A stretch of DNA of 61,003 nt from Candidatus Woesearchaeota archaeon. GTDB taxonomy: Archaea; Nanobdellota; Nanobdellia; Woesearchaeales; UBA10216. Shown here piece by piece: positions 20,426 to 37,922 of this stretch. The notes beneath the pieces were generated by a model. It did not search any database, had not been told where the DNA came from, and worked only from the letters and a program-made list of their open reading frames with translations. The stretch is from contig JACPBX010000031.1 of assembly GCA_016180085.1 (NCBI GenBank), positions 1 to 61,003 on the forward strand, in the 5' to 3' direction. How positions within the stretch are numbered: the first letter of the stretch is position 1; each line of letters starts with the position of its first letter. A program made the translations under genes and the position numbers.

Positions 20426-20441
20426 GGACTCGTCACTCTTG

Positions 20442-21621: not shown

Positions 21622-21715
21622 TCCAATGCTAAATTGGCAGTGCTGTTTATAAAAATATTGATTTTTGGCACTGCCTAGCAGCGGCAGTGAGGCAGGTTGA
21701 CCTTACCAGTGAAAT

Positions 21716-21766: not shown

Positions 21767-21778
21767 TAGGAAAAACCT

Positions 21779-24205: not shown

Positions 24206-24317
24206 CAGCCTCTTTTCAGCCTGTTAATTGGGCGCCGCATATATAAAAATATCGGTTTGTGTTATGCCATTTTGTAAGCGACAAAACTATTTAAACTTCA
24301 ATGCTGTTGCTTTTGCC

Positions 24318-24881
24318 ATGATTAAGAAAGAAGCCCGCATCCTGGGCATTGATGACAGCCCCTTTGACAAGTTCAAAGATGGGAAAGTTTTGATAATCGG
24401 GACTTTCTTTCGTGGAGGAAGCAGCCTGGACGGCGTTATGACAACCACAGCAGCGGTTGACGGCATTGATGCGACAGTAAAAATCACCAGGATGATAAAA
24501 AAGAGCAAATTCTACACCCAGTTGAGGGCAATAATGCTTAACGGCATAGCAGTTGGTGGCTTCAATGTCATAGATATCCGGCAGCTGCACCGGAAAACAA
24601 AAATCCCCGTCATCGTTGTCATGCGTGACTATCCCGAGATAGGCAAAATAAAAGCCACGCTTGCAGGACTCGGAATGAAAGGAAAAGTCGGGCTGATAGA
24701 AAAAGCCGGCAAAATCAGCAAAGTCGATAACGTCTATGTGCAAATAAGCGGCTGCAGCCTGGAAAAAGCTAAAGAGTTTCTGAGGATTTCCTGCACCAGA
24801 AGCCACATCCCGGAGCCCATAAGGGCAGCCCACCTGATAGCTGCAGGGATAAAGCTTGGGGAGAGCAAGGGAAAGGCGTAA
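24318..24881 (+). CDS. DUF99 family protein (endonuclease V-like fold)
   Basis: RILGIDDSPF, VDGIDAT, GGFNVID and PEPIRAAHLIA motifs. Confidence 0.9.
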   Translation: MIKKEARILGIDDSPFDKFKDGKVLIIGTFFRGGSSLDGVMTTTAAVDGIDATVKITRMIKKSKFYTQLRAIMLNGIAVGGFNVIDIRQLHRKTKIPVIVVMRDYPEIGKIKATLAGLGMKGKVGLIEKAGKISKVDNVYVQISGCSLEKAKEFLRISCTRSHIPEPIRAAHLIAAGIKLGESKGKA

Positions 24882-24939
24882 ACTTCACTGCAACGAAAAG
24901 CGTAACATTTATATAACAGATGTTACAATAAGATAACAC

Positions 24940-25488
24940 ATGTTACAAAAAAGTAGCATTGAGAGGGTTGCGGAAGTTTTCTTCATCAGTCCTATGACAA
25001 GCCATTACCTAAGGGAGATAAGCAAAAAAGCAGGCATAGCGCACACTTCTGTCAAAAGAGACTTGCTAAAACTGGTAAGGCTGGGGCTAATAGAAGAAAA
25101 AATTGAGCGAAGAGGAGGCAGAAGATTTCCTGTTTATGTTGCGAGGAGGGATGCAAAAGAATTTAGGCGTGGAAAGAGGGGAAAGATGGTTTATAACCTC
25201 TCTTCCGTGCTTGAATCAGGGCTTATAGAACATCTGGAAGAAAAGCTCACCCCAAAAACGATTGTCCTCTTCGGGAGCTATCGTAGGGGCGAAGATATCG
25301 AAGGTAGCGATATAGACTTTTTTGTCGAGTGCAAAGAAGAACCAGTGAATCTCACCAAGTTTGAAAACAAACTGGGAAGGAAGATAGAGTTGCATTTCAA
25401 TGAGGACTTCATCAATTACTCAAAAGAGCTAAAAAACAACATAATAAATGGTATTGTCTTGTCTGGCTTCCTGGAGGGATATAAGTGA
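24940..25488 (+). CDS. HTH + minimal nucleotidyltransferase (MNT) antitoxin
   Basis: YLREISKKAGIAHTSV HTH; LFGSYRRGEDIEGSDID motif. Confidence 0.88.
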   Translation: MLQKSSIERVAEVFFISPMTSHYLREISKKAGIAHTSVKRDLLKLVRLGLIEEKIERRGGRRFPVYVARRDAKEFRRGKRGKMVYNLSSVLESGLIEHLEEKLTPKTIVLFGSYRRGEDIEGSDIDFFVECKEEPVNLTKFENKLGRKIELHFNEDFINYSKELKNNIINGIVLSGFLEGYK

Positions 25489-25901
25489 TAGTTAAAGTTC
25501 AGCCGGATATGCAGAAATCACAAGCACTCCGAAAAATAGCAGAGGTGACTCTAGAAAGGATAAAAGATACAGACATCGACAAGTACCCCAGCAACATTCT
25601 CGTGGATTACTATGAAACCATCCATAAGTTGCTTGAAGCCATTACCTCAATAGAAGGCACCAAAATAAAAGGAGAAGGTGCTCACCAGGAACTCATTGAT
25701 TATGTTACAAAGAATTACAGCCTTGATGAGCAAACAAGGCAGCTATTGCAGCAGATGCGTGATTACAGGAACCGCATTTCCTATGAAGGGCTAATGATAA
25801 ACAAGAATTATATCCTGCTGAATGAGAAGAAGCTGAAAGAGATTATTGAGCTGCTGCTTGACAAGCTTTCAAAGCTTGGCGAAGGCAAGGGTAAGGCGTA
25901 A
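25485..25901 (+). CDS. HEPN-domain protein
   Basis: All-helical 138 aa with RNRISYEG motif; overlaps the MNT stop codon. Confidence 0.75.
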   Translation: MIVKVQPDMQKSQALRKIAEVTLERIKDTDIDKYPSNILVDYYETIHKLLEAITSIEGTKIKGEGAHQELIDYVTKNYSLDEQTRQLLQQMRDYRNRISYEGLMINKNYILLNEKKLKEIIELLLDKLSKLGEGKGKA

Positions 25902-26068
25902 AACAGTAGCAAAAGCAGCAGGAAATTGTTTTCGGCTTTGCCGTTTTTCTTCCAAAATTTTGGCTTTTTCCCGGCAAATTTGCGGCGGCTACCGGTAAAG
26001 TTACGAAAGTGCCGTAATTTCGACGACAAATCGGCAGAAAGGCATTTTAATTCTGAACATTACAAAGG

Positions 26069-27484
26069 ATGTTGGTGATGTCGATGAAGCGGTTAATGGT
26101 ATTGTTCGTTATGTTCATTGCAGTTGCGGCTGCACTCGCTGTTGTGCTCGGGGCAAACGCGGCAGTGGCCGCAGCTGCAAACGAACCAGGCAATGTAATA
26201 ATCTCGCAGGTCCTTTATGACCCTGTAGGTTCAGAGTCCGGTGGGGAGGCCGTTGAGCTTTACAACCCGGCAGCTTCTTCTGTGAACATAAGCAATTGGG
26301 TTCTGGCTACGGAAACCTCTCCAACGGATGCCATTATCCCAAATGGCGCAGCCATTTGCAGCGGCTGCTACTTTCTCGTTGCAGACTCAAACTGGTCAAA
26401 TGCAAGGGGCAATTCTTCATGGCCAAACGCTGACTTTGAGGAAGCCGTAACCTTGGCTAATAGTGACGCTGGCGTGGCCTTAAAGGACTCAAACGGCACA
26501 GCTGTGGATGCTGTTGGCTGGGGCAATCCTGCGAATATCGGTGCTGGTTTGTTTGAGGGCGTTCCCAGCAGCGGCAGCAGCAGCGGGAATGCGTTGGTGA
26601 GAAGAATTGTGAATGGCAGCTACCTTGACACAAATAACAATTCCAACGATTTCATTGAGGCAACGCCGAATTTCCATAACAGCAGTTCTTCAGTTTCTAA
26701 AACGGCAAGCACAAATGCAGAAATTCAGATTATGATAATTGTTTCAGGCTCAGGCCCGTCTATAAGCTCGCTGAACATTTTAACCGATGATGACAGCTTT
26801 CTGTCAGGAAGCCAGATAAGTCCCGTCCCGAATAAAAATAAAACAATAGCAGTTGAAGCTGTCGTTGCTGATGACAACGGGGCTTCAGACATCGCCTCAG
26901 TTATCCTGGCTTTTAATTCTGCCAATTTAACAGTTGCTATGGCAAAAAAGAGCGATATTAACGCAACAGCGGCAATTTATTCAGCCTCTTTTAACCTTTC
27001 AAGCCACTTCGCAGCAGGGAATTATACCATCACGGCAGCAGCGGCAGACAATTCAGGGTTTTCTGCAAATTCGTCAGCAAGCTTTGAATACCTCACAATG
27101 ACGGCAGTTGAGGTTGATGCGAGTTCGATAACGCTCTTTGCATCCCCGGGCTCAACATACGAAGTGGCTGGCGACGAATCAACTGCAACAGCAACCAACA
27201 TAACCGTATTCAACTCCGGAAATGTGCAGCTGGACTTTGACGTGTTGTCAACAAACTTCACCTCAGGCAGCAGCACCATAGAAGCGCCAAGGCTCCGGTA
27301 CACTTTCAACGGCAACTACGATAACAGCTCTTTTGCAGGAAACATGACAAATGCCAAAGCAAGGAAGGATGTAAACCTCAATCCCGGCTCGATGGCAGGG
27401 CTCAGCCTGAGGCTCAGCTTGCCTCTGGCAACTTCCCCGGGAAATTACTCCGGGAAAATATCGCTGGTCGCGGTGAATTCGTAA
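26069..27484 (+). CDS. Secreted lamin-tail-domain (LTD) protein with Ig-like domains
   Basis: Signal peptide; VIISQVLYDP...EAVELYNP...VNISNW...LKDSNGTAVDAVGWG. Confidence 0.82.
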   Translation: MLVMSMKRLMVLFVMFIAVAAALAVVLGANAAVAAAANEPGNVIISQVLYDPVGSESGGEAVELYNPAASSVNISNWVLATETSPTDAIIPNGAAICSGCYFLVADSNWSNARGNSSWPNADFEEAVTLANSDAGVALKDSNGTAVDAVGWGNPANIGAGLFEGVPSSGSSSGNALVRRIVNGSYLDTNNNSNDFIEATPNFHNSSSSVSKTASTNAEIQIMIIVSGSGPSISSLNILTDDDSFLSGSQISPVPNKNKTIAVEAVVADDNGASDIASVILAFNSANLTVAMAKKSDINATAAIYSASFNLSSHFAAGNYTITAAAADNSGFSANSSASFEYLTMTAVEVDASSITLFASPGSTYEVAGDESTATATNITVFNSGNVQLDFDVLSTNFTSGSSTIEAPRLRYTFNGNYDNSSFAGNMTNAKARKDVNLNPGSMAGLSLRLSLPLATSPGNYSGKISLVAVNS

Positions 27485-28068
27485 TGCAGCGCTCTTTCTT
27501 TACTTATTATTTTCTATTTCTGCTTTTGGCAGCAGCAACTGTAGCCATAAATGCTTCGCAAAACGCCAATGCTGCCGGTTTTGGCGTTTCCCCATCCAAC
27601 ATGGAATTCATTGTTGAAAAAGGCTCGCAGGCGTCAAGGCAGCTCATGCTTTACAACACGAATGAAGAGGCTGCCGAGTTCACAGCCATGAGCAGCAATC
27701 CGGAAACCACGAAGGTCTCGCCAGAGAGAGGCACAGTGCCGGGGGAAGGCACCACTTCAATTACGGTTACCGCGAGAGGGATTAAAAAGAATAAAGAAGG
27801 TAAAAGCGAAGGGGAAATAGTTATAAGCTTTGACAACCGCAACATCGACGCTGACAGGGAGGTAAGCCTCTCGCTTGGCACTGCTGTTGCAGTGAAAGTG
27901 GATGTCGTGAAAGGCGCGGCTTTGGCTGTAAACGCCATTATTGGCGTGATAGTCTCGGCAAGCATTGTCATGGCGGGATTGGCGGCGTATTATGCAACAA
28001 GAAGAAGGGCAGGAAAGCCGTCAACCGATTTTCATTCTGCTTACGACCTTTACATGGCGCGCAGGTAG
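27484..28068 (+). CDS. Ig-like surface protein with a C-terminal membrane anchor
   Basis: Signal peptide, GFGVSPS start, C-terminal TM followed by RRR. Confidence 0.72.
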   Translation: MQRSFFTYYFLFLLLAAATVAINASQNANAAGFGVSPSNMEFIVEKGSQASRQLMLYNTNEEAAEFTAMSSNPETTKVSPERGTVPGEGTTSITVTARGIKKNKEGKSEGEIVISFDNRNIDADREVSLSLGTAVAVKVDVVKGAALAVNAIIGVIVSASIVMAGLAAYYATRRRAGKPSTDFHSAYDLYMARR

Positions 28069-28122
28069 CAGACCAAAAGCAAAACCCAAAAATTTATATA
28101 TATACATATGAATATCTATGCT

Positions 28123-28368
28123 ATGGCAAGGACGATAATGATTGCTGACAGGATTTATGAGGAGTTGAAGAAGGCAAAAGGCAGCGATAAAAGCTTCAGT
28201 GACGTGATAGGTGAAGCTCTTGAAGCGTCAAAGCCTAAGAAGACTATAGCTGGAGTTTTGAAGTATGCTGGTATCCTTAAGGGCGATACAGAGTACGACG
28301 AATTAATGAAGTGGTCAAAAAAGAGATGGAAAGAATGGCAGGATAGATCATGGAAAAAATCTGTTTAG
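28123..28368 (+). CDS. VapB-type antitoxin
   Basis: MARTIMIADRIYEELKKAKGSDKSFSDVI; upstream of a PIN gene. Confidence 0.85.
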   Translation: MARTIMIADRIYEELKKAKGSDKSFSDVIGEALEASKPKKTIAGVLKYAGILKGDTEYDELMKWSKKRWKEWQDRSWKKSV

Positions 28369-28666
28369 ATACATCAATTTGCATTGATTTAATAAAAACA
28401 GGCAACAAAAGGGCACTATCTCCTTTTTTAACTGCCGAGGCTTTTTTAAGTTCAATGACCCTTTTTGAATTAAGGCTTAGGACGCACAACTTGGAGGAGG
28501 CCGAATTGTTCATTAGCACATTCGAAATATTGGCGTTTGACAAGAAAGCAGCCGAGGAAGCAAGCAACATAGAGAAGGACTTGAAAAGCAGGGGGGCCTT
28601 AATCGGGCGGGAAGACATTTCTCGAGGATTAAAGGGCTTAAGCTGGTTAAGCTGCATCACGAATAA
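28350..28666 (+). pseudogene. VapC/PIN toxin with internal deletion and frameshift
   Basis: CLDTS...IGREDI in one frame; the expected tail RHFSRIKGLKLVKL lies in another frame from 28613; the intervening PIN segment is absent. Confidence 0.8.
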
Positions 28667-30474
28667 TAGAACCTCCCCTGCGCCTTCTGCTCTCTGTCAA
28701 GCCTTGATTCCGGCGAATTAATCCTCGGCCTGTTTGAGTCCTTGTCGCGCCTCAGCGTGATGTTAAGGCTGCGGAGGAAGCTGTTCATTCCGTCCTCCAT
28801 TGAGAAAGGCCCTTTTGCTTCCCCTTTTATCGCCGGCTCGCCTTCGAACACCATCAGCATGTCGGATATGTAATCGACAAGCAGCAGGTCGTGGTCAACA
28901 ACCAAGGCGGTTTTGCCGTGCACATCCATTCTCTCGCGCAGCAGCTTTGAAACAGCAATGCGCTGCTCAACGTCAAGGTACGCTGCCGGCTCATCCAGCA
29001 AATAGAGGTCGGCATCCTCTGCAAGGCATTTAGCAATCATAACCCTTTGCAGTTCCCCTCCTGACAATTCGCTGACCTTTTTCAGCAGCAACGGCTCAAT
29101 TTCCAGCCTAGCCATAAGCTGTGCGTCATTCTGCGCTTTTGCCAGTATGTTTGTCACCTGCTCATCTGCTTTTTCAGTCGCGTGGATATACTGCGGCTTG
29201 TACGAAATCCTCACGCTCGCGCCTATGCTGCCGACGTCAGGCTTTATCTCCCCTGCCAGCATCCTGACAAAGGTTGTTTTCCCAAGCCCGTTTTCCCCAA
29301 GAACTCCGATGACGTGCTTTTTAGGCAGCTCTCCCGCAGCGGCAGTGAAGCGGAATTTTCCTAATTTCTTGCTGAAGTCACCCCACTTGACAAGGCCTTC
29401 CTTGCCGATGACCTTCTTTGGCGGCTTAGTCTCGAACCTTATCTCGTGCTGCCTGAAGCGCATGTTTTCCTCCTTTAGGTAACCTTCAAGATAGGTGTTT
29501 ATCGCTGTCCTTGTTGGCCTTGGCTTGCTTGCTATCCCGTAAGCGCCAGCCTCGCCGTACATTATGTGCACAGAATCCGCAAGGTAATCCATGACAATCA
29601 GGTCGTGCTCTACCGCAACAACGGCTGTTTCAGGCTTTGCCAGTTTCCTGATGTACTGGCTGGCCTTTATCCTCTGCTTTATGTCAAGGTAGGATGTTGG
29701 CTCATCAAACACGAAAACGTTTGAGCTCTGACTGTCTTTGAGCACGGCAGCGGCAATGGCTATCCGCTGCAGCTCCCCTCCCGAGACCTGACCTATCTCG
29801 GTTTCGAGGACATTTCCTATTCCCAGCTCTTCTGCAACAGCAGCGATTTTTTTGCTGTCGCTGCAGACTTTGTGCAACAGCTGCTGCGCCGTGCCTTTGA
29901 ACGTTTTCGGAATCGCATCAACCGCCTGCGGCTTCATTGACACCCTTATTTTTCCATCGCGCACTTTCTCAAAGAACACCTGTGCTTCGGAGCCCTTGAA
30001 CATCTTAATCAACTTGTTGATGGGCTCTTTTTCTTCTTCTTTTTTCCCTTTCGCTTCAGTAGCTGTTGCAGCCGCCTCTTTTATCCCGAAATTCGGCATC
30101 ACCATCTGCGCAATTATTTTGACTGCCGTGCTTTTGCCAATGCCGTTGATGCCCAGTATCCCGTTTACCTGCCCAAACAGAGGCACGGCCAGGCTGAACA
30201 GAGAGAATCCGTCTATTCCAAACCGGTGCACTGGCTTTTCAGTGAGCTTCTCGGGCAGCTTCACCATGTGGATTGCGCCGAAAGGGCACTTCTTTACAGT
30301 AATGCTTTCAGCGTCAGTGCAAACCTCTTCGTTCACTTGGGCTTTGCCGTCAGGCCCTATAACAAAAACTTCGTTGCCCATCCTGTTTCCAGGGCTAACC
30401 CTGATGCACAGATAACCTCCACAGCCCTGGGGGTTGCACTTGTCCTTCTCTATTACCGCTATTCTCCTTGCCAT
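28657..30474 (-). CDS. rli: Ribosome recycling ATPase ABCE1/RLI
   Basis: N-terminal Fe-S domain and two ABC cassettes (GINGIGKST, SGGELQR twice, DEP). Confidence 0.95.
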   Translation of the reverse strand: MARRIAVIEKDKCNPQGCGGYLCIRVSPGNRMGNEVFVIGPDGKAQVNEEVCTDAESITVKKCPFGAIHMVKLPEKLTEKPVHRFGIDGFSLFSLAVPLFGQVNGILGINGIGKSTAVKIIAQMVMPNFGIKEAAATATEAKGKKEEEKEPINKLIKMFKGSEAQVFFEKVRDGKIRVSMKPQAVDAIPKTFKGTAQQLLHKVCSDSKKIAAVAEELGIGNVLETEIGQVSGGELQRIAIAAAVLKDSQSSNVFVFDEPTSYLDIKQRIKASQYIRKLAKPETAVVAVEHDLIVMDYLADSVHIMYGEAGAYGIASKPRPTRTAINTYLEGYLKEENMRFRQHEIRFETKPPKKVIGKEGLVKWGDFSKKLGKFRFTAAAGELPKKHVIGVLGENGLGKTTFVRMLAGEIKPDVGSIGASVRISYKPQYIHATEKADEQVTNILAKAQNDAQLMARLEIEPLLLKKVSELSGGELQRVMIAKCLAEDADLYLLDEPAAYLDVEQRIAVSKLLRERMDVHGKTALVVDHDLLLVDYISDMLMVFEGEPAIKGEAKGPFSMEDGMNSFLRSLNITLRRDKDSNRPRINSPESRLDREQKAQGRFYYS

Positions 30475-30567
30475 ATTAATCGGAGTGAAGATTTGGATGA
30501 TGGTTTAAATTAGTTGCGGCTTTTCCGGCAACAGGTTTTTATATGATTAAAAACTTCCATAGGCTGT

Positions 30568-31467
30568 ATGAAGCGCAGCCTTATGGACGAGGTCGGGGTA
30601 TTGCTGCTGAGGCACGGCTACACTGTAAAAAGCCTCACGAGGGCAAGCTTTGACATCGTGGCAAGGAAGGGCTCGCATGTGCTTCTTATCAAGGTGCTTG
30701 AGGACGCCAACAGCATCAGCGAGGACTACGCAAGCTCCATGAAGGGCCTTGGCAGCTACATCGATGCCTCGCCTGTGGTTATCGCTGAAAAAGCCGGGCA
30801 CGCCCTGGAAGACGGGGTTGTTTACTCAAGGTTTGGCGTTTACACGTTCAATTACAGCACGTTCAGCAGCTGCCTTGAAAACAGGTTCCCCATAATCATA
30901 AGCACGAAGGCAGGCTTCACCGCATCCGTCGTTGGCGAGAAGCTGAGACGGCAGAGGGAGGAAAAAGGGCTCTCCCTTGGAGCAATATCCGGGAAGGTTG
31001 GCGTTTCAAAGAGGATGATTTCAAAGTACGAGTCAAACGATGCAGACGTTTCACTGAGAAGCGCCATTGCCCTGAACAGGCTTTTCGGCAGCGGCATATT
31101 CAACAAGGTCGATGTCTTCGCAGTAGCCAGGGAAACCGCGAGCAAAAACCCTTCAGTCATTGCAAGGAAATACGACGAGCTGGGATTCCGGGCAGCGGAC
31201 ACGAAAAAGGCGCCTTTCGACGTCATTGCAAAGCTGGAGAAAGAGCTCATACTCACCGATGTTTCCCCGAAAAAGGGAGCGAATCCCCAGCTTGAGTCGC
31301 TGCAGCAGCTGCTTGGCGCAGATGCCCTGGTGATTTTAGACAAAAAGGCAGCAACCAGCTCATACACTGAAAAGAATAAAAAGAAGCTGCCATCCCTGCA
31401 GAAAAGGGACTTTTTGGACTTTAATTCGGCAAAGGAGCTTATCAGGTTTTTGAAGGAGTTTGAATAA
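30568..31467 (+). CDS. Conserved archaeal Cro/C1-type HTH transcriptional regulator
   Basis: FDIVARK...LIKVL N-domain; HTH LRRQREEKGLSLGAISGKVGVSKRMISKYE; KKAPFDVIA. Confidence 0.85.
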   Translation: MKRSLMDEVGVLLLRHGYTVKSLTRASFDIVARKGSHVLLIKVLEDANSISEDYASSMKGLGSYIDASPVVIAEKAGHALEDGVVYSRFGVYTFNYSTFSSCLENRFPIIISTKAGFTASVVGEKLRRQREEKGLSLGAISGKVGVSKRMISKYESNDADVSLRSAIALNRLFGSGIFNKVDVFAVARETASKNPSVIARKYDELGFRAADTKKAPFDVIAKLEKELILTDVSPKKGANPQLESLQQLLGADALVILDKKAATSSYTEKNKKKLPSLQKRDFLDFNSAKELIRFLKEFE

Positions 31468-31474
31468 GCCTGTT

Positions 31475-31837: not shown

Positions 31838-32003
31838 TTTGCTGCTCCTGCCCCCTTTTCTGAACAGCTTTCTAAATTTTCTAAACCTTCCAAATAAGCA
31901 GGGTAAGCTGATTTTGTTTAAAAAGGTTTGGCGAGAAATACAGGAACCCAACCTGAAATCATAGTGGGAAATCTTTATAAACAGCCTCGGCTGCCGCAGC
32001 AGC

Positions 32004-33884
32004 ATGCCAAAAAGCAGCGAGCCAAAAGGCAGTGAAAAGGCAGGGAAGATTGAGAAGCTCGTTCCTGACACATCAGTCATAATTGAAGGAATGGTCAGCA
32101 GAAAGATAAAATCCGGTGAGATAAAGCCCTCTGCGGTTGTTATCCACGAGGCAGTCATTGCTGAGCTTGAGCACCAAGCCAACACGAACAAGACCATCGG
32201 CTTTCTGGGCCTTGACGAAATCAAAAGATTGAAGGAACTTTCTGACGAGTTTGGTTTCACATTAGAATTCGCAGGTGTAAGGCCGCACGCTGCCGAGATA
32301 AGGCACGCAAAGCTTGGCGAGATTGACGCGCTGATAAGGCAGCTCGCCTTTGAGACAGACGGAACCCTGATGACAGCTGACAAGGTCCAAGCAGAGGTTT
32401 CCAGGGCTAAGAACATTCCTACGATTTTTGTTGAGATTGAGCAGATGCAGCATGCCATAAGGCTTGAAAGCTACTTTGACGAGGCAACAATGAGCGTGCA
32501 CCTCAGGGAGAACGTTGCGCCGAAGGCAAAGAAGGGAGTGCCGGGAAACTGGTCTTTCACAGAGATTGCTGACAAGCCGTTGTCAAGGGAAGAAGTAAAG
32601 GAGATGTCCCGGGAAATCATTGAGGAAGCCGGAGTTAGAAGGGACGGCTTTGTTGAGATTGAACGGCCAGGCTCAACCATTGTGCAGCTCGGCCCTTACA
32701 GGATTGTCATCACAAGGCCTCCATTGTCTGACGGCTGGGAGATAACAGCTGTAAGGCCTGTGAAGAAGCTGGCCCTGGATGACTACAAACTTTCTGACAA
32801 GCTCAGGCACCGCATAAAAGAGCAGGCAGAGGGAATACTCATTGCAGGCTCGCCAGGGGCCGGGAAATCCACTTTCGCTCAGGCACTTGCTGAGCATTAC
32901 GCGTTGCAGGACAAAATTGTAAAAACAGTTGAAGCTCCCCGTGATCTGCTTCTGCCTGATAGCATAACTCAGTATGCAATCAGCCACGGCTCACCGCAGG
33001 AAATCCATGACATACTGCTCTTGTCAAGGCCTGACTACACAATCTTTGATGAAATGAGGAACACAGCAGACTTCCAGCTCTTTGCAGATCTCAGGCTTGC
33101 AGGCATAGGTTTAGCCGGTGTTGTCCACGCCACAAACCCGATAGACGCCATCCAGCGCTTTGTTGGGAGGATTGAGCTGGGTGTTATCCCGCAAATAATT
33201 GATACCGTCATTTTCATAAAAAACGGCTTTGTGGGAAAAGTGCTAAGCCTGAACATGACTGTCAAGGTTCCTGAAGGAATGACCGAGGCAGACCTCGCAA
33301 GGCCTGTTGTTGTTGTCAATGATTTCGAAACGGGCAAGCTGGAATACGAGCTTTACAGCTACGGAGAGGAAACGGTTGTAATTCCGGTAAGCAGCCTTGC
33401 CAGAAGCAGGAGCCCGATTCAAAAATTCGCGGCAACCGCCATTGAGGATAAGCTGAAGGAATACGTCAGCAGCGCAAGGGTCGAGATGGCTTCTGACAAC
33501 AAATGCATAGTTTACGTTCCTGAAAAAGAGATAGCCAGGCTTATTGGCAAAGAAGGAAGGAACATTGCTGCAATCGAGGAAAGGCTTGGGGTGGGCATTG
33601 ATGTCCAGCCATTAAGCGCAAAGAGGGCAGCGGCTGCAGCCAGTGAAGGCGAAGACGAGAACATCGCGTTTGATGCCCAGATAGGCAAGAAGCACGTCGG
33701 GTTCTCTGTTGACGGCATCTTCGCCAACAAAAACGTCAAAATCTACGTTGACGGCGATTACGTGATGACTGCAAATGTCGGCAAGGACGGTATCTTCAAG
33801 ATTTCAAGGAAGAACAAGATTGGCAAGGTCATTGCCGATGCTGTCAGCTCAGGGTCTGGGCTGAAGGTTACCTTGGTAAGCTAA
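32004..33884 (+). CDS. PIN-domain ATPase with KH domain (PINA-like)
   Basis: VPDTSVII PIN domain, GSPGAGKST Walker A, FDEMR, LIGKEG KH motif. Confidence 0.9.
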   Translation: MPKSSEPKGSEKAGKIEKLVPDTSVIIEGMVSRKIKSGEIKPSAVVIHEAVIAELEHQANTNKTIGFLGLDEIKRLKELSDEFGFTLEFAGVRPHAAEIRHAKLGEIDALIRQLAFETDGTLMTADKVQAEVSRAKNIPTIFVEIEQMQHAIRLESYFDEATMSVHLRENVAPKAKKGVPGNWSFTEIADKPLSREEVKEMSREIIEEAGVRRDGFVEIERPGSTIVQLGPYRIVITRPPLSDGWEITAVRPVKKLALDDYKLSDKLRHRIKEQAEGILIAGSPGAGKSTFAQALAEHYALQDKIVKTVEAPRDLLLPDSITQYAISHGSPQEIHDILLLSRPDYTIFDEMRNTADFQLFADLRLAGIGLAGVVHATNPIDAIQRFVGRIELGVIPQIIDTVIFIKNGFVGKVLSLNMTVKVPEGMTEADLARPVVVVNDFETGKLEYELYSYGEETVVIPVSSLARSRSPIQKFAATAIEDKLKEYVSSARVEMASDNKCIVYVPEKEIARLIGKEGRNIAAIEERLGVGIDVQPLSAKRAAAAASEGEDENIAFDAQIGKKHVGFSVDGIFANKNVKIYVDGDYVMTANVGKDGIFKISRKNKIGKVIADAVSSGSGLKVTLVS

Positions 33885-33918
33885 GAAATTTGCTAAGCTA
33901 TTCTATTTTTGTTTAAGC

Positions 33919-35193
33919 TTATTTAAGCACTTCAAGAACCCCTCCTGCTGGCCAGGTTAAGGGATTCCTAGGAATAAACACGATGTTTTGTGGGTTGTAA
34001 GCCTGTGCCCCGTTTGCAAAAATCGGGACAAATTGTTCATACGCTTTGTCATATGTTTCAAAAATGCTGATTGCCTTGCCCAGCCATTTGGCATACTCCT
34101 CTGCTGCCCCGGGCTTTGTGGCAAAATATCCTGCCAATTCAAGCAACCCCATAAACCACTCGCCATTCTCTGCAGTGGAGGGATGCCGGTTTTTGTCAGA
34201 AGTGCCATCAAGCCCTTGGTACCAATCCCCAAAATACCTTGTCAAGCCCATAACTCTGGGCACTCCATTTACGGTTCCGAGGGCGGCTATTGCCTGGGGC
34301 ACTATCCTGTCCATTGTTGAGTCAGTAACCACGTCATAACGTCTTATCCACAGTTGCGCAAGGTCCACATCCCGATTATCAGTTTCCCTCAGGGGCAATA
34401 ACCGTTCTTCCAGTTTTCTTCTGCCCTTGCCTATAGCCTCTGAAAGCCCTGGAACCCTGCGCTTCCTAGCTGCTTCCAGACCGCCTAGGCTTGCTGCAAG
34501 GTTTGTAGTGTAAATCTTGGGCTCCTCCTCCCATCCATTGGCAAAAGGCTTTTCAAAGCAGCCTATCGCAACAAGGTACTGAGCTGCTTTTTGGTAAAGG
34601 CAGGAATACTTTTGCACTTCGGGGTCTCTTCTTCTTGACAACGACACCAACCAGGGCGCGCTGTAAATAAGAAGCTCGCCGAGCCATTGAGGCTCCTGCG
34701 TGTTGCTCCATTTTCCCTCTATCCTTCCAAGTGTTTCAGGATCAACCCTTGGTGAAATACAAAACTCATTGCTGTAAGCGGTTGGTTGCTTGATGACTTC
34801 GTCCATTACGCTTTCATATTTTTGCAGAATTCCGAACAGGCCGCGCCAGAGGCTGTCTATAACTTCGCTAAGAAAAAGTTTTTCATGGGATTTGAAATCA
34901 ATGCATGGCGATGAGAAGTCTTTGGGCAGGGCCTGCAGGCCGAGGAGCACGCGTATCATGTCGCGACCCCAGCTGGCACTGTATTGGCCATTTGCTGATG
35001 CCTCTCCAGCCCTGACAAGCAGAGTGTCGTCCTCACGCCAAACAAATTGCTTGACTATTTGCTCAAGAGCTTTATCCCTCAGTGCCTGAAGCTTATGAGC
35101 AGTATAAAGCAAGCTAGCAGAATGGAACTGTCTCTCTGACTGTTGCGGTTCAGAAACTGCAACGCTTGCTTGCACACCCATCCTAAATGTCAT
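33919..35193 (-). CDS. Six-hairpin glycosidase, GH15/phosphorylase-kinase-like
   Basis: WGRD, GWEEE, DLAQL, RYFGDWY and EW motifs in the expected order. Confidence 0.65.
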   Translation of the reverse strand: MTFRMGVQASVAVSEPQQSERQFHSASLLYTAHKLQALRDKALEQIVKQFVWREDDTLLVRAGEASANGQYSASWGRDMIRVLLGLQALPKDFSSPCIDFKSHEKLFLSEVIDSLWRGLFGILQKYESVMDEVIKQPTAYSNEFCISPRVDPETLGRIEGKWSNTQEPQWLGELLIYSAPWLVSLSRRRDPEVQKYSCLYQKAAQYLVAIGCFEKPFANGWEEEPKIYTTNLAASLGGLEAARKRRVPGLSEAIGKGRRKLEERLLPLRETDNRDVDLAQLWIRRYDVVTDSTMDRIVPQAIAALGTVNGVPRVMGLTRYFGDWYQGLDGTSDKNRHPSTAENGEWFMGLLELAGYFATKPGAAEEYAKWLGKAISIFETYDKAYEQFVPIFANGAQAYNPQNIVFIPRNPLTWPAGGVLEVLK

Positions 35194-35296
35194 ACTTTGG
35201 AAGATGTCATATTTATATCTTGTTATACACGGCTATGCACACGGTCTGCAAATCTTGCAAAAACATTTATATTAGCACTCTAACAGCAGTTTTGAC

Positions 35297-36589
35297 ATGC
35301 TCGACATCAAATTCATCAAAGCCAATCCCGCAGTTGTGAGGAAGGACCTTGAGCGGAGGCAGGACAAGGAGAAGCTGCCATGGGTTGACGAGGTCGTTAA
35401 GAAGCACGATGAGTGGAAGAGGTTTAAGCTGGATGTTGACAAGCTCAGGCATGGCCGCAACCTCTTAACAGCAGAGATAAGCAAGCTTCACAAGCAGAAG
35501 AAGGACATCGCTGCGAAAATAAAGGAAGCCAGGGAGATGGCTGAAAAGGTAGAAGCTTCTGATGAGAAGCTGCGGCAGCTGCAGGAAAGGGTTGATTTTA
35601 TTCTACAGCGGCTGCCAAATATACTGCACGACTCGGTTCCGGCAGGCAAAGACGATACCGAAAACAAGGAAATAAGAAGATGGGGAACCCCGAAAAAGCC
35701 CTCATTTCCCCTTAAAAACCACGGCGAACTCCTCGAGCAGCTCGGCTTGGCTGATTTTGAGCGAGCCACAAAAATTTCAGGGGCAGGCTTTCATTTCCTG
35801 AAAGGCGATTTTGTAAAGCTGGAGCTTGCCCTGATTAACTTCGCGGCTGCAGCGATAGAGAAAAAGGGATTTACGCTGATTGAACCCCCTTTGATGATGC
35901 AGAGGAAGCCGTATGAAGGCGTTACCGACATTGCCGCTTTCGAGAATGTCATGTACAGGATTGACGAGGGCAGGAAGGATGAGGAGAGCAGCTACCTCAT
36001 CGCAACTTCGGAGCACCCCATAGCAGCGATGCTGATGAACGAAACCCTGGATGAAAAGGAGCTGCCGCTGAAGTTCTGTGGCATTAGCAACTGTTTCAGA
36101 AGGGAGATTGGCAGCCACGGCATTGACACTCGCGGCCTGTTCAGGGTCCATCAGTTCAATAAGGTGGAAATGTTTGTTTTCTGCAAGCCAGAGGATTCCT
36201 GGAAGCTGCACGAAGAGCTGCTGAAGAATGCCGAAGAGTTGCTGCAGCAGCTGAAAATCCCGTATAGAGTCGTAAGCGTTTGCACTGGCGACATCGGTTC
36301 GGTTGCCGCAAAGAAATACGACCTGGAAGCGTGGTTCCCAAGGCAAAATAATTTCCGCGAGGTAGTAAGCTGCAGCAACTGCACATCCTACCAGGCAGCA
36401 TCGCTGAATATAAGGTACCCCAACGGCAAAACAGGAGAGAAGGAATACGTCCACACATTAAACTCCACAGCAATCGCAACGGGAAGGACGATGGTCGCCA
36501 TCATTGAGAATTACCAGAACAAGGACGGCACAATAACCGTGCCTGACGTGCTTGTGCCTTACGTGGGCAAGAAAACTATTGGGAAGTAA
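35297..36589 (+). CDS. serS: Serine--tRNA ligase
   Basis: MLDIKFI, LIATSEHP, FRRE, FRVHQFNKVE, EVVSCSNC and HTLNST motifs. Confidence 0.97.
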   Translation: MLDIKFIKANPAVVRKDLERRQDKEKLPWVDEVVKKHDEWKRFKLDVDKLRHGRNLLTAEISKLHKQKKDIAAKIKEAREMAEKVEASDEKLRQLQERVDFILQRLPNILHDSVPAGKDDTENKEIRRWGTPKKPSFPLKNHGELLEQLGLADFERATKISGAGFHFLKGDFVKLELALINFAAAAIEKKGFTLIEPPLMMQRKPYEGVTDIAAFENVMYRIDEGRKDEESSYLIATSEHPIAAMLMNETLDEKELPLKFCGISNCFRREIGSHGIDTRGLFRVHQFNKVEMFVFCKPEDSWKLHEELLKNAEELLQQLKIPYRVVSVCTGDIGSVAAKKYDLEAWFPRQNNFREVVSCSNCTSYQAASLNIRYPNGKTGEKEYVHTLNSTAIATGRTMVAIIENYQNKDGTITVPDVLVPYVGKKTIGK

Positions 36590-36701
36590 GCCAACAGTTG
36601 GCAGCGTAGTATGTTACTCAGTTACATATTCTTTATATACTTGGTAACATATGTCATTAAGTACCATAAAATTTATATACTCAGTAACATAAACATTCTG
36701 C

Positions 36702-37115
36702 ATGAAGGAAGAGGAACATTTTAACGCGTATAGCGAGCACCGCTCTGTCATTGATTGGGCGATTGACAAAGGCGTTGAACAGTCACAAAGGACAATAGCC
36801 ATGCACGCCTCCAGAGGGGCTGTTGAGCTTTTGTCGTTTTATCTTCATAAAGCCAAGAAGATAGACCAAGGTTTTCAGGTTAACCACAGGTGGTTCAAGA
36901 GCCCGCAAGCAGGCAGGAAGCTTCCGGAGTTTGAGAAGAAGGAAGTAATCGTGCCTAAGCTGGTTGAGCTCGAAAACAACTGCGAGAACCTGACGTACGG
37001 CTCGCAAAAGCCGGCAAGCGAAATCAAGGAAGTTGTTGAGCTGTTTAACGAAGTGGAAAAGCTACTGAAGGAGTTGGCAGGGGATGAAAAGCATGAAAAG
37101 CGAGACCAGGAATAA
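36702..37115 (+). CDS. HEPN-like protein
   Basis: Helical 137 aa with ENLTYG motif; paired with an MNT gene. Confidence 0.65.
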   Translation: MKEEEHFNAYSEHRSVIDWAIDKGVEQSQRTIAMHASRGAVELLSFYLHKAKKIDQGFQVNHRWFKSPQAGRKLPEFEKKEVIVPKLVELENNCENLTYGSQKPASEIKEVVELFNEVEKLLKELAGDEKHEKRDQE

Positions 37116-37731
37116 GCTTGTTGCGTATGCGATGCACTTTGCATCCTTCCTTGTAGAGCGAGGGGTAAAGTCGAGAAAGATTGTGCTGTTTGGCTCTGTG
37201 GCGAGCGGAGAATTTGACAGGGAAAGCGATATAGACATTTTTGTCGATGCAGACAAAACCGAAGGAAAAGCAGTGCTTGGATTATTGAGCAGCTTTGAGA
37301 AAACGTTTGGCGAAAAGTGGAGGCTTAAAGGCATTGCAAATCAGTTATCAGTTACTGTAGGCGATTTAAATTCAAAGGAGTGGGAAGACGTCAGGAGAGC
37401 AATTCAAAGCTATGGTTTGACCCTTTACGGGCAGTATGAAGGGCTTCCCAAAGGCATTAGGCCCTTTGTGCTCTTCAGCCTTGACTTCAAGGGCATAAGC
37501 AGGCCCCGCAAGGTTGGGCTTTGGCGGAAGCTGTATGGCTATGCGCAGAAGGTAGGCAAAAAAAGCTACAAAACAGAGGGCCTGTTAGGGCGCCTTGGCG
37601 GCGCTAAGGTGGATAGGGGCGTTGTTCTCGTTCCGGCTGCAGGTGCTGCGGAACTCAAAGGCTTTTTGGGAAAGAATAAGATAAGCTTCAGGCTGGTTGA
37701 GTTTTGGAGCGACCAGCTCTCTTCCAAGTAA
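37084..37731 (+). CDS. MNT nucleotidyltransferase with an extra C-terminal domain
   Basis: LFGSVASGEFDRESDIDIFV motif. Confidence 0.85.
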   Translation: MKSMKSETRNKLVAYAMHFASFLVERGVKSRKIVLFGSVASGEFDRESDIDIFVDADKTEGKAVLGLLSSFEKTFGEKWRLKGIANQLSVTVGDLNSKEWEDVRRAIQSYGLTLYGQYEGLPKGIRPFVLFSLDFKGISRPRKVGLWRKLYGYAQKVGKKSYKTEGLLGRLGGAKVDRGVVLVPAAGAAELKGFLGKNKISFRLVEFWSDQLSSK

Positions 37732-37755
37732 AGTTGTGCCTTACGTGGGCAAGAA

Positions 37756-37873
37756 CACAATTCGGCACAAGTCGGCAGTATAGCCGACTGTGCAATCCTA
37801 CCGAAGCAGGATTTGCAGCAGCCGAATGTGCCCAGTCGCAGCAGCGACTTGGGGATTATTGGGAAATAATTCC
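37756..37873. repeat. Cluster of nested and consecutive inverted repeats
   Basis: Five stems are readable by eye (detailed in findings). Confidence 0.75.
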
Positions 37874-37922
37874 GGCTTTCTCACAACAAACTATATAAAC
37901 ATTCCAGCCATCTTTGCCGAGT

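Follow-up and report, generated by a model that had tools for sequence, protein, structure and literature searches.

Two small gene cassettes in a Candidatus Woesearchaeota genome lie directly behind the stop codons of housekeeping genes, each between two copies of its host gene's final bases. Our analysis supports the proposal of a first-pass annotation that these are discrete, integrase-free units lodged in gene 3′ ends, with the gene end left intact. The proximal copy of the repeat preserves the host gene, and the distal copy is the displaced gene end, still joined to its old downstream DNA. As to how the units arrived, we give about an even chance to recombinase-independent insertion with a long, variable target duplication at conserved gene ends.

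Two cassettes between copies of a host gene end

The window, by which we mean the whole stretch of 61,003 nucleotides analyzed, belongs to a 1-Mb groundwater genome that is 82.8% complete and is coded G000 among its relatives. The first target is an Endo_dU gene (site 1):

24228..24881, + strand: Endo_dU (endonuclease dU) family gene, target 1 (Pfam PF01949, E 6.7e-56)
24851..24882, + strand: repeat copy 1, the final 31 nt of Endo_dU with the stop codon plus 1 nt; functional gene end
24883..24939, + strand: cassette 1 promoter/operator, a TATA-like tttatata between GTAACAT and ATGTTAC (read from sequence)
24940..25488, + strand: MNT1, N-terminal wHTH plus minimal nucleotidyltransferase; putative antitoxin/repressor (NTP_transf_2 E 1e-10, Polbeta)
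25485..25901, + strand: HEPN-like partner 1, putative toxin (HepT-like_2 E 0.0035, below cut-off)
25871..25902, + strand: repeat copy 2, the original end of Endo_dU, displaced and now forming the 3′ terminus of the HEPN-like ORF
25903..26068, no strand: host intergenic DNA upstream of the LTD-domain gene, outside cassette 1 (aligns with empty-site DNA of G007 and G002)

Here the direct repeat (24851-24882 against 25871-25902) is identical at 28 of 32 positions, and the final 10 codons and stop of partner 1 are themselves repeat copy 2. The cassette promoter region is kept in two relatives, G001 and G006. The second target is serS (site 2):

35297..36589, + strand: seryl-tRNA synthetase (serS), target 2 (Pfam tRNA-synt_2b E 6.1e-44, Seryl_tRNA_N)
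36552..36589, + strand: repeat copy 1, the final 38 nt of serS with the stop codon
36590..36701, + strand: cassette 2 promoter/operators, two tttatata boxes between ATGTTAC/GTAACAT inverted repeats
36702..37115, + strand: HEPN-like partner 2, putative toxin (Pfam: no match)
37084..37731, + strand: MNT2, minimal nucleotidyltransferase plus ~100-aa C-terminal extension (NTP_transf_2 E 5.5e-9)
37734..37869, + strand: repeat copy 2, the displaced serS end, split in two (37734-37758 plus 37857-37869; gapped alignment)
37759-37856: REP-like hairpin element, 98 nt, inserted within copy 2
37914..38993, + strand: orc1/cdc6, downstream host gene and conserved serS neighbor (Cdc6_lid and AAA domains)

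Without gaps, this repeat (36552-36583 against 37734-37765) is identical at 29 of 32 positions. The gapped alignment (36552-36589 against 37734-37758 plus 37857-37869) extends it to the serS stop codon with 36 of 38 positions identical, and its score of 26.06 was reached by none of 2000 random 180-nt genome windows (maximum 12.5). The REP-like hairpin belongs to a family with further copies elsewhere in the genome, and metagenome contigs reach a depth of 900–1500 at position 37779 inside it. The palindrome-rich DNA that had been counted as part of each unit is thus host intergenic DNA at site 1 and this hairpin at site 2.

Both units measure ~1.0–1.15 kb and begin directly after the host stop codon, and a Pfam scan finds only the two cassette genes in each insert. 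As annotated, gene order is reversed between them, with MNT1 first at site 1 and the partner first at site 2. Also as annotated, the window has no integrase or transposase Pfam domain among the scanned ORFs of at least 90 aa; Rfam gave no match in the window.

Both nucleotidyltransferases score above the PF01909 cut-off and have GSx(n)DxD motifs (GSYRRGEDIEGSDID and GSVASGEFDRESDID), so that the MNT label, taken as an NTP_transf_2 fold plus this catalytic motif, fits both predicted proteins. MNT1 has a Lrs14-like HTH, and it matches MntA_antitoxin (E 1.1e-6) below the cut-off (NCBIfam MntA equivalog 28.4 vs 60). For the partners, the HEPN label is modestly supported by family and structure-model matches. 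The Rx4-6H motif is absent from partner 1, and in partner 2 the sequence RTIAMH lies at residues 30–35, near the N-terminus. A single-sequence AF2 model of partner 2 (pLDDT 77) has 4–5 helices, and its best Foldseek matches are HEPN proteins, at E 0.2–1. HEPN-type proteins make up most of the top eight VIA-align matches (Z 9.2–11.2, rmsd 3.1–3.4, 107–121 residues aligned), in a range (Z below ~13) where the program warns that helical bundles may have merely a common arrangement. A phmmer search against PDB sequences returned no HEPN match for partner 1 or 2. Of the MNT/HEPN content first annotated, the MNT half stands on PF01909 and motif, and the HEPN half is more tentative, the HepT-like_2 match of partner 1 being below cut-off. 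Together, gene-pair architecture, family matches, and operator-rich promoters suggest that the units are putative toxin–antitoxin (TA)-type pairs.

The promoters are, as reported, rich in ATGTTAC/GTAACAT. The motif occurs 69 times in the genome, and all four neighboring pairs within 60 nt fall in the two cassette promoters. The cassette 2 layout recurs in homologous cassettes from other families and in contig L144. We read the motif as the cassettes' own operator and not as a recombination site.

Gene-end repeats against the genomic background

Repeats of this kind stand out across the genome. From 938 crude ORF-based calls, 914 gene tails were scanned against the DNA 100–3100 nt downstream, and serS (24.5) and Endo_dU (22.0) ranked first and second. 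Scores of at least 18 were obtained for 5 of 914 tails, vs 0 of 914 in reverse-complemented downstream DNA; an upstream-DNA control gave 2 of 789. Flanking repeats scoring at least 20 surround 3 of 19 TA-marker genes in the genome vs 15 of 682 other genes, and three of those 15 are partner genes in these very cassettes. The enrichment around TA genes that had been predicted is accordingly present. Weaker repeats had also been claimed around other genes. The trmI-linked ORF (4199-4882) scores 13.0 and the 223-aa gene (45973-46644) scores 13.0, or 15.5 when taken with Sua5; all are at background level (reverse-complement control mean 11.2; 29 of 701 genes at ≥14). No JAB gene was identified in the Pfam scans.

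That the repeats reflect chance similarity, paralogous C-terminal motifs, or an assembly artifact is extremely improbable. Causes of this kind do account for some high-scoring tail repeats: a DLPxMVGGC C-terminal motif common to two paralogs underlies the C41 14516/14843 pair, and the C35 and C31 pairs sit in paralogous genes. The tail-scan and random-window controls contradict this explanation for the cassettes, however, and the same structures are found in other genomes. Metagenome contigs from three runs cover all of cassette 1, and one contig covers cassette 2 from within copy 1 past copy 2, in both cases with 0 differences, although these runs come from the study to which the likely source sample belongs and so are not independent of the assembly.

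Empty sites and the origin of the two copies

Relatives supply the empty-site alleles that the first-pass annotation had called for. Among loci examined in detail, orc1 adjoins serS without insert at 5 of 20 (G008, G014, G016, G018, and G023), with one metagenome strain in addition; Endo_dU adjoins the LTD gene without insert at 4 of 24 (G007, G002, G018, and G012); and 1 of 7 genus proS loci is empty (G006). More generally, serS was found in 37 of 40 relatives and Endo_dU in 26 of 40. Both observations on which the annotation had staked its reading, repeat enrichment and empty sites, were therefore made. In metagenome contigs from the same groundwater runs, the serS end (36585) is joined to the orc1 promoter (37897) via 38 other letters; this is the empty allele of a close strain. 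At site 1, copy 2 together with the DNA behind it is colinear with the end of Endo_dU and the sequence that follows it in G007 and G002, where the site is empty; at site 2 of G001, the corresponding stretch is colinear with G006. Because the distal copy continues into empty-site sequence, it is the displaced original gene end.

Similar arrangements exist at other ends. On another contig, the proS end carries a UPF0175/DUF3368 pair with a 46-nt gene-end repeat, and a further UPF0175 pair lies between 33-nt repeats of the tRNA-His 3′ end. The insertion point is 0–1 nt past the stop codon in each of the three protein-gene cases of G000. At proS, 9–13 of 42 nt separate the functional copy (type A) from the displaced one (type B), whereas only 3 of 42 separate the displaced copy of G005 from the functional end of G008. 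It looks as if the new proS end arrived with the insert. Each of the two copies at sites 1 and 2 looks like host sequence. The original statement that cassettes regenerate gene ends therefore needs qualifying: a foreign-looking functional copy is seen at proS only. At serS, copies 1 and 2 differ at 3 of 31 nt in G000 and at 2 of 31 in G001, and between these genomes the orthologous copies show 7 (copy 1) and 11 (copy 2) differences.

These comparisons bear on homology-facilitated illegitimate recombination. Here linear DNA from a relative would be anchored on one side by the homologous gene, and its free cassette end would be joined by microhomology some tens of nucleotides before the stop codon, so that the gene end would be duplicated and copy 1 would be donor-derived. 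The divergent functional end at proS fits such a scheme, as does an AAGCTT microhomology at the right junction of cassette 1. So do the many inserts at the serS and Endo_dU hot spots that lack a repeat, as would result from joins made beyond the stop codon. However, serS upstream of the repeat has no donor-like tract (G000 is closest to G005 in every 150-nt window, at 79–94% identity), and G000-specific changes are common to both serS copies. The model alone also leaves unexplained why one cassette family occurs at unrelated targets. We consider this route quite improbable.

Repeats and targets in other families

HEPN2–MNT2 homologs from other families have repeats scoring at least 19 (28–73 nt) at 5 of 23 evaluable loci, a level reached by 1 of 23 in the reverse-complement control. 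Each repeat-flanked unit is 1119–1180 bp long, and its repeat lies 0–20 nt past the last stop codon. The targets are the ABCE1 start, the 3′ ends of three convergent genes, and one AT-rich site. In the cassette-1 family, 2 of 26 valid loci score at least 18 and 2 more score 14–15.5, with all four repeats lying 1–13 nt from the unit end. Repeat lengths are 20, 28, 29, 32, 32, 33, 34, 38, 41, 46, and 73 nt, rising to ~95 nt at serS in L144, a metagenome contig. No common core was found among the 12 repeats: AT-rich ones aside, no k-mer of 6 or more bases occurs in three or more of them. Among the 34 genes inserted at three hot spots in relatives, at least 9 are TA-type by Pfam (PIN ×4, ParE, MazE, HepT, Fic, and UPF0175), and none has an integrase or transposase domain.

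The sole tyrosine recombinase of the 82.8%-complete genome is a XerA equivalog on another contig (NF040815, 268.7 bits vs a cut-off of 220). Resolvase, Y1_Tnp, TnpB-type, and DDE_Tnp_1 models gave no match in the same genome, and because of its incompleteness a recombinase may have been missed.

It has to be asked, then, whether an integrase encoded elsewhere (by a virus or a plasmid, or XerA) acted in trans and left the repeats as attL/attR cores, or whether larger elements decayed, losing their integrase along with other genes, to leave an addictive TA pair. Integrative elements are classically recognized by 30- to 50-bp repeats and a regenerated gene or tRNA 3′ end, and one of the present cases is a tRNA-His 3′ end. 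Elements inserted by site-specific integration also typically accumulate in tandem at a single site. The integron-integrase model gives the XerA-type protein 223.9 bits, albeit below the cut-off of 265, and the incompleteness of the genome leaves some room. Against this, the same minimal unit with the same edges recurs at independent loci with different targets, whereas larger elements decaying at random would not end at identical edges each time. The hot-spot inserts contribute no recombinase, G000 has neither a second tyrosine recombinase nor a serine recombinase, and the repeats vary from 20 to 95 nt around no shared core. A search of IMG/VR viral contigs gave no close MNT1 or MNT2 homolog, with no relative confirmed and a single weak, partial match. 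We regard this explanation as unlikely. Mobilization in trans, the first of the two routes originally suggested, is accordingly the less supported, and recombination or repair by host functions fits better. The window by itself did not suffice to settle the mechanism, as its annotators had said, and the wider data narrow it.

Apparent reuse of gene-end sites

Both cassettes are present in G000 and G001 and absent from the other eight genus members searched. The same cassette, site, and repeat boundary are found in G000, G001, and L144, with an identical right junction in G000 and L144. In L144, the left side of the cassette has a ~95-nt piece of serS but no adjoining serS gene, so that the serS-end duplication differs in length from the 38 nt of G000. 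The last cassette gene runs in frame into copy 2 at site 1 of G000 and G001, at site 2 of G001, and ancestrally in G006. In G008, the order of proS tail types A and B is swapped relative to G000, G005, and G007, and the proS array has three gene-end copies bounding two cassettes.

Most of these patterns would fit a portable homology arm of Campbell type. A circle formed by recombination between the repeats would carry one copy of a conserved gene end, and RadA-dependent host recombination would cross this 30- to 95-nt arm with the recipient gene end, recreating two repeats. Conserved gene ends would be used because they are similar across species, and new targets would arise rarely, through imprecise excision. 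Shared boundaries, the L144 fragment, the tandem G008 array, and in-frame entry into copy 2 agree with the model, as does the fact that the targets are ends of highly conserved genes and a tRNA. The two orders of proS types are those left by crossovers on either side of the variable stretch. Nonetheless, nearly every repeat-flanked cassette across the order has a different target. The creation of new targets must then be at least as frequent as reuse, and an illegitimate step is still needed. The lineage-specific changes shared by the serS copies require a near-identical donor or added conversion, and the variable duplication length at serS is a further difficulty. No circle or excision junction of the cassettes was seen in the metagenome contigs examined, which are Logan contigs from which rare variants are dropped. 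On balance we think this model doubtful.

A broader version can be stated tentatively, as a proposal that is less likely than not. In small-genome archaea, conserved gene ends would be integrase-free slots, and a 30- to 95-nt copy of such an end would travel with each addiction cassette as a portable arm. Host recombination machinery would insert, stack, swap, and remove cassettes at the serS, proS, Endo_dU, tRNA-His, and similar ends, and addiction would block their loss. If so, such slots would be a functional analog of the integron without integrase or attC, and would offer a general route for the movement of solitary TA modules.

Recombinase-independent insertion with long target duplication, the reading we prefer, would proceed as follows. 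The unit would be a self-contained, self-repressed transcription unit consisting of a promoter with operators, two genes, and nothing more. Host break repair or replication template switching would insert it directly past a conserved host stop codon without a dedicated integrase, duplicating the final ~30–55 nt of the gene. The two copies would then act as short homologous repeats. Gene conversion between them may occur, and their recombination would cause precise loss, producing empty sites and hybrid gene ends. The repeats may also serve as landing pads where cassettes stack or replace each other, giving three-copy arrays; the patterns described above point to each of these steps. Since TA addiction would penalize loss by recombination between repeats, it would also explain why addiction modules are the genes that remain in slots.

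Several observations weigh against this preferred mechanism. No repeat pair is 100% identical, and no fresh target duplication has been caught. The divergent functional end at proS is better matched by an end brought in from a donor than by fill-in duplication, and insertion so close behind the stop codon is not predicted by a random staggered break. The G008 array and the identical G000/L144 right junction agree with recombination taking place at the repeat. The presence of both cassettes in G000 and G001 alone among the genus members searched, moreover, is poorly explained by simple vertical descent and random loss.

Comparison with known systems

In content, the units resemble the type VII HEPN–MNT (HepT–MntA) toxin–antitoxin systems (PMC11586414, PMC4621449). 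The likeness lies in a GSx(n)DxD nucleotidyltransferase with a ~135-aa all-helical partner, overlapping genes, and an autoregulated-looking promoter. Unlike in those systems, the partners lack Rx4-6H (partner 1) or have it near the N-terminus only (partner 2), and Pfam/NCBIfam scores fall below cut-offs. MNT1 also has an additional wHTH, MNT2 has a further C-terminal domain, and toxicity here is putative.

Integrative elements with tyrosine integrases target the 3′ ends of tRNA or protein genes and regenerate them. Like them, our cassettes target the very 3′ end of conserved genes or a tRNA, retain a functional end, have repeats of tens of bases, and show tandem accretion. They differ in that the insert, the window, and the 34 inserted genes contain no integrase, and none was seen to be supplied by the 82.8%-complete genome; in that no conserved att core unites the 12 repeats; and in that the insert is a promoter with two genes.

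Many gene cassettes of chromosomal integrons are TA pairs. Like them, the units described here are small, often TA, and arranged in arrays separated by short repeated sites. Unlike them, they have their own promoters and apparently no adjacent IntI/attI, and their separators look like copies of a host coding end rather than attC hairpins.

The closest precedent is insertion with long target duplication of restriction–modification (RM) systems, reportedly described by Nobusato et al. in 2000. In a later study (PMC2853133, Furuta, Abe & Kobayashi 2010), bacterial RM systems lacking mobility genes insert with variable target duplications of >30 bp, a start or stop codon frequently lies within the repeats, and some genes are fused. 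Our cassettes match that account: they are addiction-type units without a mobility gene, and they are bounded by repeats of variable length that exceed 30 bp and are single-copy at empty sites (site 1, 32 nt; site 2, 38 nt; proS, 46 nt). Here too, repeats often span a start or stop codon, the target gene survives, and genes are fused at junctions. In contrast to RM insertions, the present ones occur in an archaeon with a small genome, their repeats are imperfect, slots seem to be reused (with arrays of up to three gene-end copies), and insertion falls at the stop codon in all three G000 protein-gene cases. The cargo (MNT/HEPN-like, UPF0175/DUF3368, Fic, ParE, or PIN) is also not a DNA-cutting RM system but TA-type, with RNA-directed or nucleotidyltransferase proteins. 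This weakens the published idea that DNA breakage by the cargo drives insertion. We have not found insertion with long target duplication of archaeal TA modules in print. Because their cargo is not RM, we place these cassettes outside the RM set, as a variant of insertion with long target duplication.

Gene-end repeats around two TA-type cassettes

Two discrete TA-type transcription units of the window sit at gene termini, each enclosed by a long terminus duplication of variable length and unaccompanied by a recombinase. The functional host gene end (copy 1) precedes each cassette, and a second, distal copy (copy 2) lies beyond it.

Features of the two sites (window coordinates)
24228-24881, Endo_dU, host gene of site 1
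24940-25488, MNT1
25485-25901, HEPN-like partner 1
24851-24882 and 25871-25902, site 1 repeat, 28/32 identical
35297-36589, serS, host gene of site 2
36702-37115, HEPN-like partner 2
37084-37731, MNT2
36552-36583 and 37734-37765, site 2 repeat, 29/32 identical
36552-36589 and 37734-37758 plus 37857-37869, gapped site 2 repeat, 36/38 identical

Both ungapped repeats are as the first-pass annotation had described them. The gapped alignment, in which the second serS copy is broken by 98 nt, reaches the serS stop codon, and its score was matched by 0 of 2000 random 180-nt genome windows. Each of 914 gene tails (last 45 nt, +5) was compared with the DNA 100-3100 nt downstream, and the site 2 and site 1 repeats ranked first and second (24.5 and 22.0); gene calls here and throughout are crude and ORF-based (938 genes in the genome). 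Scores of at least 18 were reached by 5/914 tails, by 0/914 with reverse-complemented downstream DNA, and by 2/789 with upstream DNA. Metagenome contigs with 0 differences cover all of cassette 1, and cassette 2 from inside copy 1 to past copy 2. Set beside these controls and contigs, artefact or chance is scarcely credible as an explanation. The weaker repeats claimed around other genes scored at background level, and the JAB gene named among them was not identified in the window.

The assembly holding the window as contig C15 (998,598 bp, 45 contigs, 82.8% complete) has archaeal gene content (Orc1/Cdc6, ABCE1, an archaeal-type ProRS, the XerA_Arch equivalog, and RtcB with an intein), and the window DNA is present in groundwater metagenome runs. 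The RtcB tRNA ligase gene (48012-50942, minus strand) carries its intein with a LAGLIDADG domain (Pfam Intein_splicing, LAGLIDADG_3). Most strong direct repeats in the window stem from two very large, internally repetitive TSP_1 (thrombospondin type 1) proteins (17441-23710, minus strand). Further TA-type genes in the window lack flanking repeats: MazF/PemK, an AbiEii-like pair, and a VapB and PIN pair. Together with a 626-aa PIN-ATPase-KH protein, they lie at 11342-11680, 15620-16947, 28108-28721, and 32004-33884.

Cassette genes and operators

Both units encode NTP_transf_2-family nucleotidyltransferases with a GS...DxD motif, MNT1 having an N-terminal wHTH and MNT2 a C-terminal extension, and each is paired with a ~137-aa helical protein. 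The MNT half of the original MNT/HEPN assignment stands, and the HEPN label of the partners has modest support. Partner 1 has a sub-threshold HepT-like_2 match and lacks the Rx4-6H motif; partner 2 has no Pfam match, and phmmer searches of both against PDB sequences returned nothing relevant. The best matches to a single-sequence AF2 model of partner 2 (pLDDT 77) are HEPN proteins (Foldseek E 0.2-1), with VIA-align Z values of 9.2-11.2, a range that the tool deems ambiguous for helical bundles.

The motif ATGTTAC/GTAACAT occurs 69 times in the genome, and all four of its neighbouring pairs (at most 60 nt apart) belong to the two cassette promoters, where they flank TATA-like boxes. We rejected it as a terminal repeat or shared recombination signal because it clusters on the left, promoter side only and is kept as an operator in homologous cassettes elsewhere. 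This operator motif (24883-24939 and 36590-36701; loci L025 and L008 in the related genome G001) is shared though the cassette proteins are barely similar: only the NTase core of the MNT1 and MNT2 cassette proteins aligns (E 5e-6). Both cassettes co-occur in the genome under study (G000) and in G001 and are absent from eight other genus members searched; co-occurrence and a common operator motif could reflect cross-regulation or co-dependence. The C-terminal extensions of two cassette genes (the HEPN-like ORF of G000 and MNT2 of G001) are fossil ends of neighbouring housekeeping genes, a practical matter for annotation.

Empty, filled, and displaced alleles

Empty, filled, stacked, and swapped alleles exist among relatives. 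The related genomes are one per species and many are fragmented, and kinship means that counts among them are not independent. Empty-site alleles occur at serS (orc1 directly after serS in 5/20 loci examined; the gene is found in 37/40 related genomes), at Endo_dU (an LTD-domain gene directly after it in 4/24 loci examined; 26/40 genomes), and at proS in G006. Of the other serS loci, that of G001 holds the same HEPN-like/MNT cassette as G000 (73% and 67% amino acid identity) with its own repeat (32/34), four have 0.57-1.0 kb of other DNA before orc1 without a repeat, and nine lack orc1 within 1.5 kb, G010 among them with a 39-nt repeat around a 230-bp remnant. After Endo_dU, G001 carries the same cassette 1 (73% and 74%), G006 carries a distant cassette (44% and 40%) at the same junction with a ~85% identical promoter, and some of the remaining loci have unrelated genes in the slot. 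In other metagenome contigs, 38 letters of different sequence separate serS (36585) from the orc1 promoter (37897); these represent a close strain with an empty site. The Logan contigs of the metagenome runs showed neither a circle junction nor a repeat recombinant; these contigs, the source of all our metagenome junction evidence, cannot reveal rare junctions, and this null is not evidence against excision.

These alleles bear on which copy is ancestral. At site 1, the Endo_dU end of empty-site genomes, with its downstream DNA, aligns to copy 2 and the DNA beyond that copy; copy 1 is followed by the cassette promoter. The second serS copy of G001 and the DNA following it align with the serS end and downstream PIN gene of G006. 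Because copy 2 and its downstream DNA match empty-site sequence, the distal copy is the original gene end, displaced by the cassette.

Over 31 nt, the two serS copies differ by 3 nt in G000 and 2 nt in G001; between these genomes copy 1 differs by 7 and copy 2 by 11, and the cassette proteins are ~30% diverged. This concerted change reflects either copies homogenised by conversion or a separate duplication in each lineage at the same boundary. Such lineage-specific changes common to both copies favour true target duplication over gene ends supplied by a donor. A donor tract in serS was rejected, as sliding-window identity shows no affinity switch. Separately, serS and orc1/cdc6 are conserved neighbours across the family (window 36590-37913). 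The short spacer upstream of orc1 is a possible archaeal replication origin; if it holds one, the cassettes insert beside an origin.

Palindrome-rich DNA, originally counted as part of the cassette architecture, proved external to it. At site 1 it is host intergenic DNA, present at empty sites, and at site 2 it is a separate 98-nt element of three hairpins, which interrupts the second repeat copy. BLAST places related double hairpins (CCCAARTCG-loop-CGAYTGGG, then CCCAGTCG-loop-CGACTTGGG) on at least 7 other contigs, and a looser search on ~10; most follow directly on gene 3' ends, and their depth in metagenome contigs is 900-1500 versus 30-60 nearby. The hairpins are a separate, REP/MITE-like repeat family, with two or three in a row, of which one copy is inserted into the displaced serS end.

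Copies of the hairpin family (contig:position)
Window, 37759-37856
C20:48898; C29:637; C35:18759; C36:45978 and 49948
C39:5870; C7:2419; C3:6120; C41:25824; C14:62464

Slot reuse at proS and other repeat-flanked genes

The third-best genuine tail repeat (46 nt) lies at proS on contig C37, around a UPF0175 and DUF3368 (PIN-like) pair in opposite orientation. Among the genus members examined, a second proS-end copy lies downstream in G000, G001, G002, G005, G007, and G008.

Contents of the proS slot
G000 and G008: UPF0175 and PIN-like genes
G002: UPF0175 alone
G005: distant PIN-like/UPF0175 pair, other orientation
G007: Fic/DOC gene
G001: UPF0175 remnant and another small pair
G008, locus L139: proS 3' end copies at 365-424, 1078-1123, and 2006-2054; RelE-like pair, then UPF0175/PIN-like pair

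The proS tail has two types: in G000, G005, and G007 the functional end is of type A and the displaced one of type B, and G008 has the reverse, with a functional type B end and a displaced A-like copy. The displaced copy of G005 differs by 3/42 nt from the functional end of G008 and by 13/42 from its own functional end; the single end of G006 resembles, by eye, a mix of both types. In G008, three gene-end copies bound two tandem cassettes, a layout similar to that of an integron array but without an integrase. Given the swapped tail types, the three-copy array, and the differing contents, copies at proS are exchanged and the slot is reused. Here the functional end looks foreign, which, like the arrays and shared junctions, speaks for a donor-supplied, homology-driven variant of insertion.

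Repeats are enriched near TA genes genome-wide: among 701 genes of at most 1.5 kb scored for flanking repeats, 3/19 TA-marker genes and 15/682 others reached a score of at least 20, which the reverse-complement control reached once. Three of these 15 are cassette partners, and most others are paralog edges or repeated regulatory palindromes. Repeats of that score are missing at 16/19 TA-marker genes, the VapB/PIN pair of the window among them. Across the 1 Mb genome there are 17 PIN and 6 NTP_transf_2 matches. On C41 (25759-27141), a UPF0175 and 176-aa pair lies, without an integrase, between a 33-nt tRNA-like 3' fragment and the intact tRNA-His whose 3' end that fragment repeats. On C14 (28685-32235), two diverged copies of a P-loop-kinase unit stand on either side of a TumE-family toxin pair (30776-31413). 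The genes of these copies have diverged further than their edges (53 nt of the dCTP deaminase end, and 38 nt), and the TumE pair may have been inserted with a target duplication of great length.

Other candidate repeats were set aside. Those at C14 28685/31421 and 30699/32198 are edges of the duplicated unit around the TumE pair, that at C41 14516/14843 is a paralogous C-terminal motif, that on C11 comes from a promoter palindrome duplicated next to a Fic gene, those on C35 and C31 are paralogs, and a 22-nt match around AdoHcy hydrolase on C36 is probably chance. The C29 and C1 repeats are a repeated AACCTTTTT...AAAAAGGTT palindrome. This AACCTTTTT-CGC-AAAAAGGTT element (C29:50506-50539 and 52044-52077; C1:23059-23095 and 23535-23569), one copy of which lies directly upstream of a tRNA-like sequence not called by ARAGORN, may be a promoter or terminator.

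Cassettes across the order

MNT2 homologs occur in 25/151 sampled genomes of the order. Of 29 loci fetched, 23 were evaluable, and five of these have flanking repeats scoring at least 19 (73, 32, 41, 28, and 34 nt); the reverse-complement control gave 1/23, at an AT-rich locus. The unit between the repeats measures 1119-1180 bp in those five loci and in G000 and G001; it starts 7-45 nt ahead of the first operator and ends 0-20 nt past the MNT stop codon. Targets vary: ABCE1 is hit at its promoter and opening 10 codons, three convergent genes are hit at their 3' ends and then gain their stop codons from the junction, and one further site is AT-rich. MNT1 homologs occur in 105/151 genomes (a tally that includes G154, an unpublished genome used for this count alone). 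Of 29 loci, 26 were valid; two have repeats of at least 18 and two more score 14-15.5, with no control reaching 18, and all four repeats lie 1-13 nt after the unit end and 37-100 nt before its start. Self-matching rows from contig-end loci were dropped (MNT2 loci, L047 and L056; MNT1 loci, L122), loci L065, L066, L069, L121, and L133 were left out for too-short flanks, and L070 had no match.

The recurrence of one minimal unit at unrelated targets speaks against its being what is left of larger integrated elements, and the many different targets across the order favour true target duplication over the donor-supplied variant. Metagenome contig L144 (172-270 and 1403-1436) bears a cassette 82-91% identical to cassette 2, nearer that of G000 (HEPN-like protein 91.5%, MNT2 82%), with TA-like genes to its right. 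Its right junction is the same as in G000, and its left side is a degenerate ~95-nt serS fragment bounded by unrelated DNA, not by serS. Two origins fit this: another insertion, with a longer duplication, or movement of a cassette along with its repeats. A portable homology arm as the main route is unlikely, though a serious contender.

The absence of an integrase or transposase, noted for the window, extends to the 82.8% complete genome apart from XerA: its one PF00589 protein passes the archaeal XerA equivalog (268.7 bits, cut-off 220), and Resolvase, Y1_Tnp, TnpB-type zinc ribbon, and DDE_Tnp_1 have no match. At the three hot spots, 34 inserted genes of relatives were free of integrase and transposase domains; Pfam families among them are PIN (4), ParE, MazE, HepT, Fic, and UPF0175. 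On IMG/VR viral contigs, scans with MNT2 and MNT1 gave 0 confirmed close homologs, the 1 match being weak and partial. Within the window, Rfam and tRNA scans each gave 0 matches. A recombinase acting in trans, or decayed elements, is a quite improbable source of the cassettes. A k-mer test of 12 repeats turned up nothing in common but AT-rich k-mers; GCAAG, which the eye picks out in four repeats of G000, does not occur in the serS repeat of G001. Anchored illegitimate recombination seems a shade less probable still.

Mechanism and relation to known insertions

We give an even chance to the general reading, insertion with long duplication and without an integrase, because two observations favour donor-supplied ends and two favour true target duplication. 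Host repair or recombination may have made the insertion; the repeats would then recombine with each other, and addiction would favour retention of the cassette. A 2026 study of TA acquisition states that TA integration "remains unclear" and has 0 occurrences of "direct repeat" in its main text (PMC13617665). At this locus and among its relatives, the same gene ends recur as filled, empty, stacked, and hybrid alleles, which provides concrete junctions in several forms.

The nearest described process is "insertion with long target duplication," known from bacterial RM systems; its authors suggested that DNA breakage by the cargo might drive insertion (PMC2853133). By family, the cargos here are not DNA endonucleases, which speaks for a process independent of the cargo. 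Among the papers searched that use the term "long target duplication," no paper deals with TA modules or with archaea, and one TA review does no more than cite the original paper of 2000. If our reading is true, the process extends beyond RM systems of bacteria, both to archaea and to TA modules that target RNA. Such an extension would argue against the cargo's own DNA cutting as the driver of such insertions and would point instead to host repair or recombination, with addiction as a survivorship filter.
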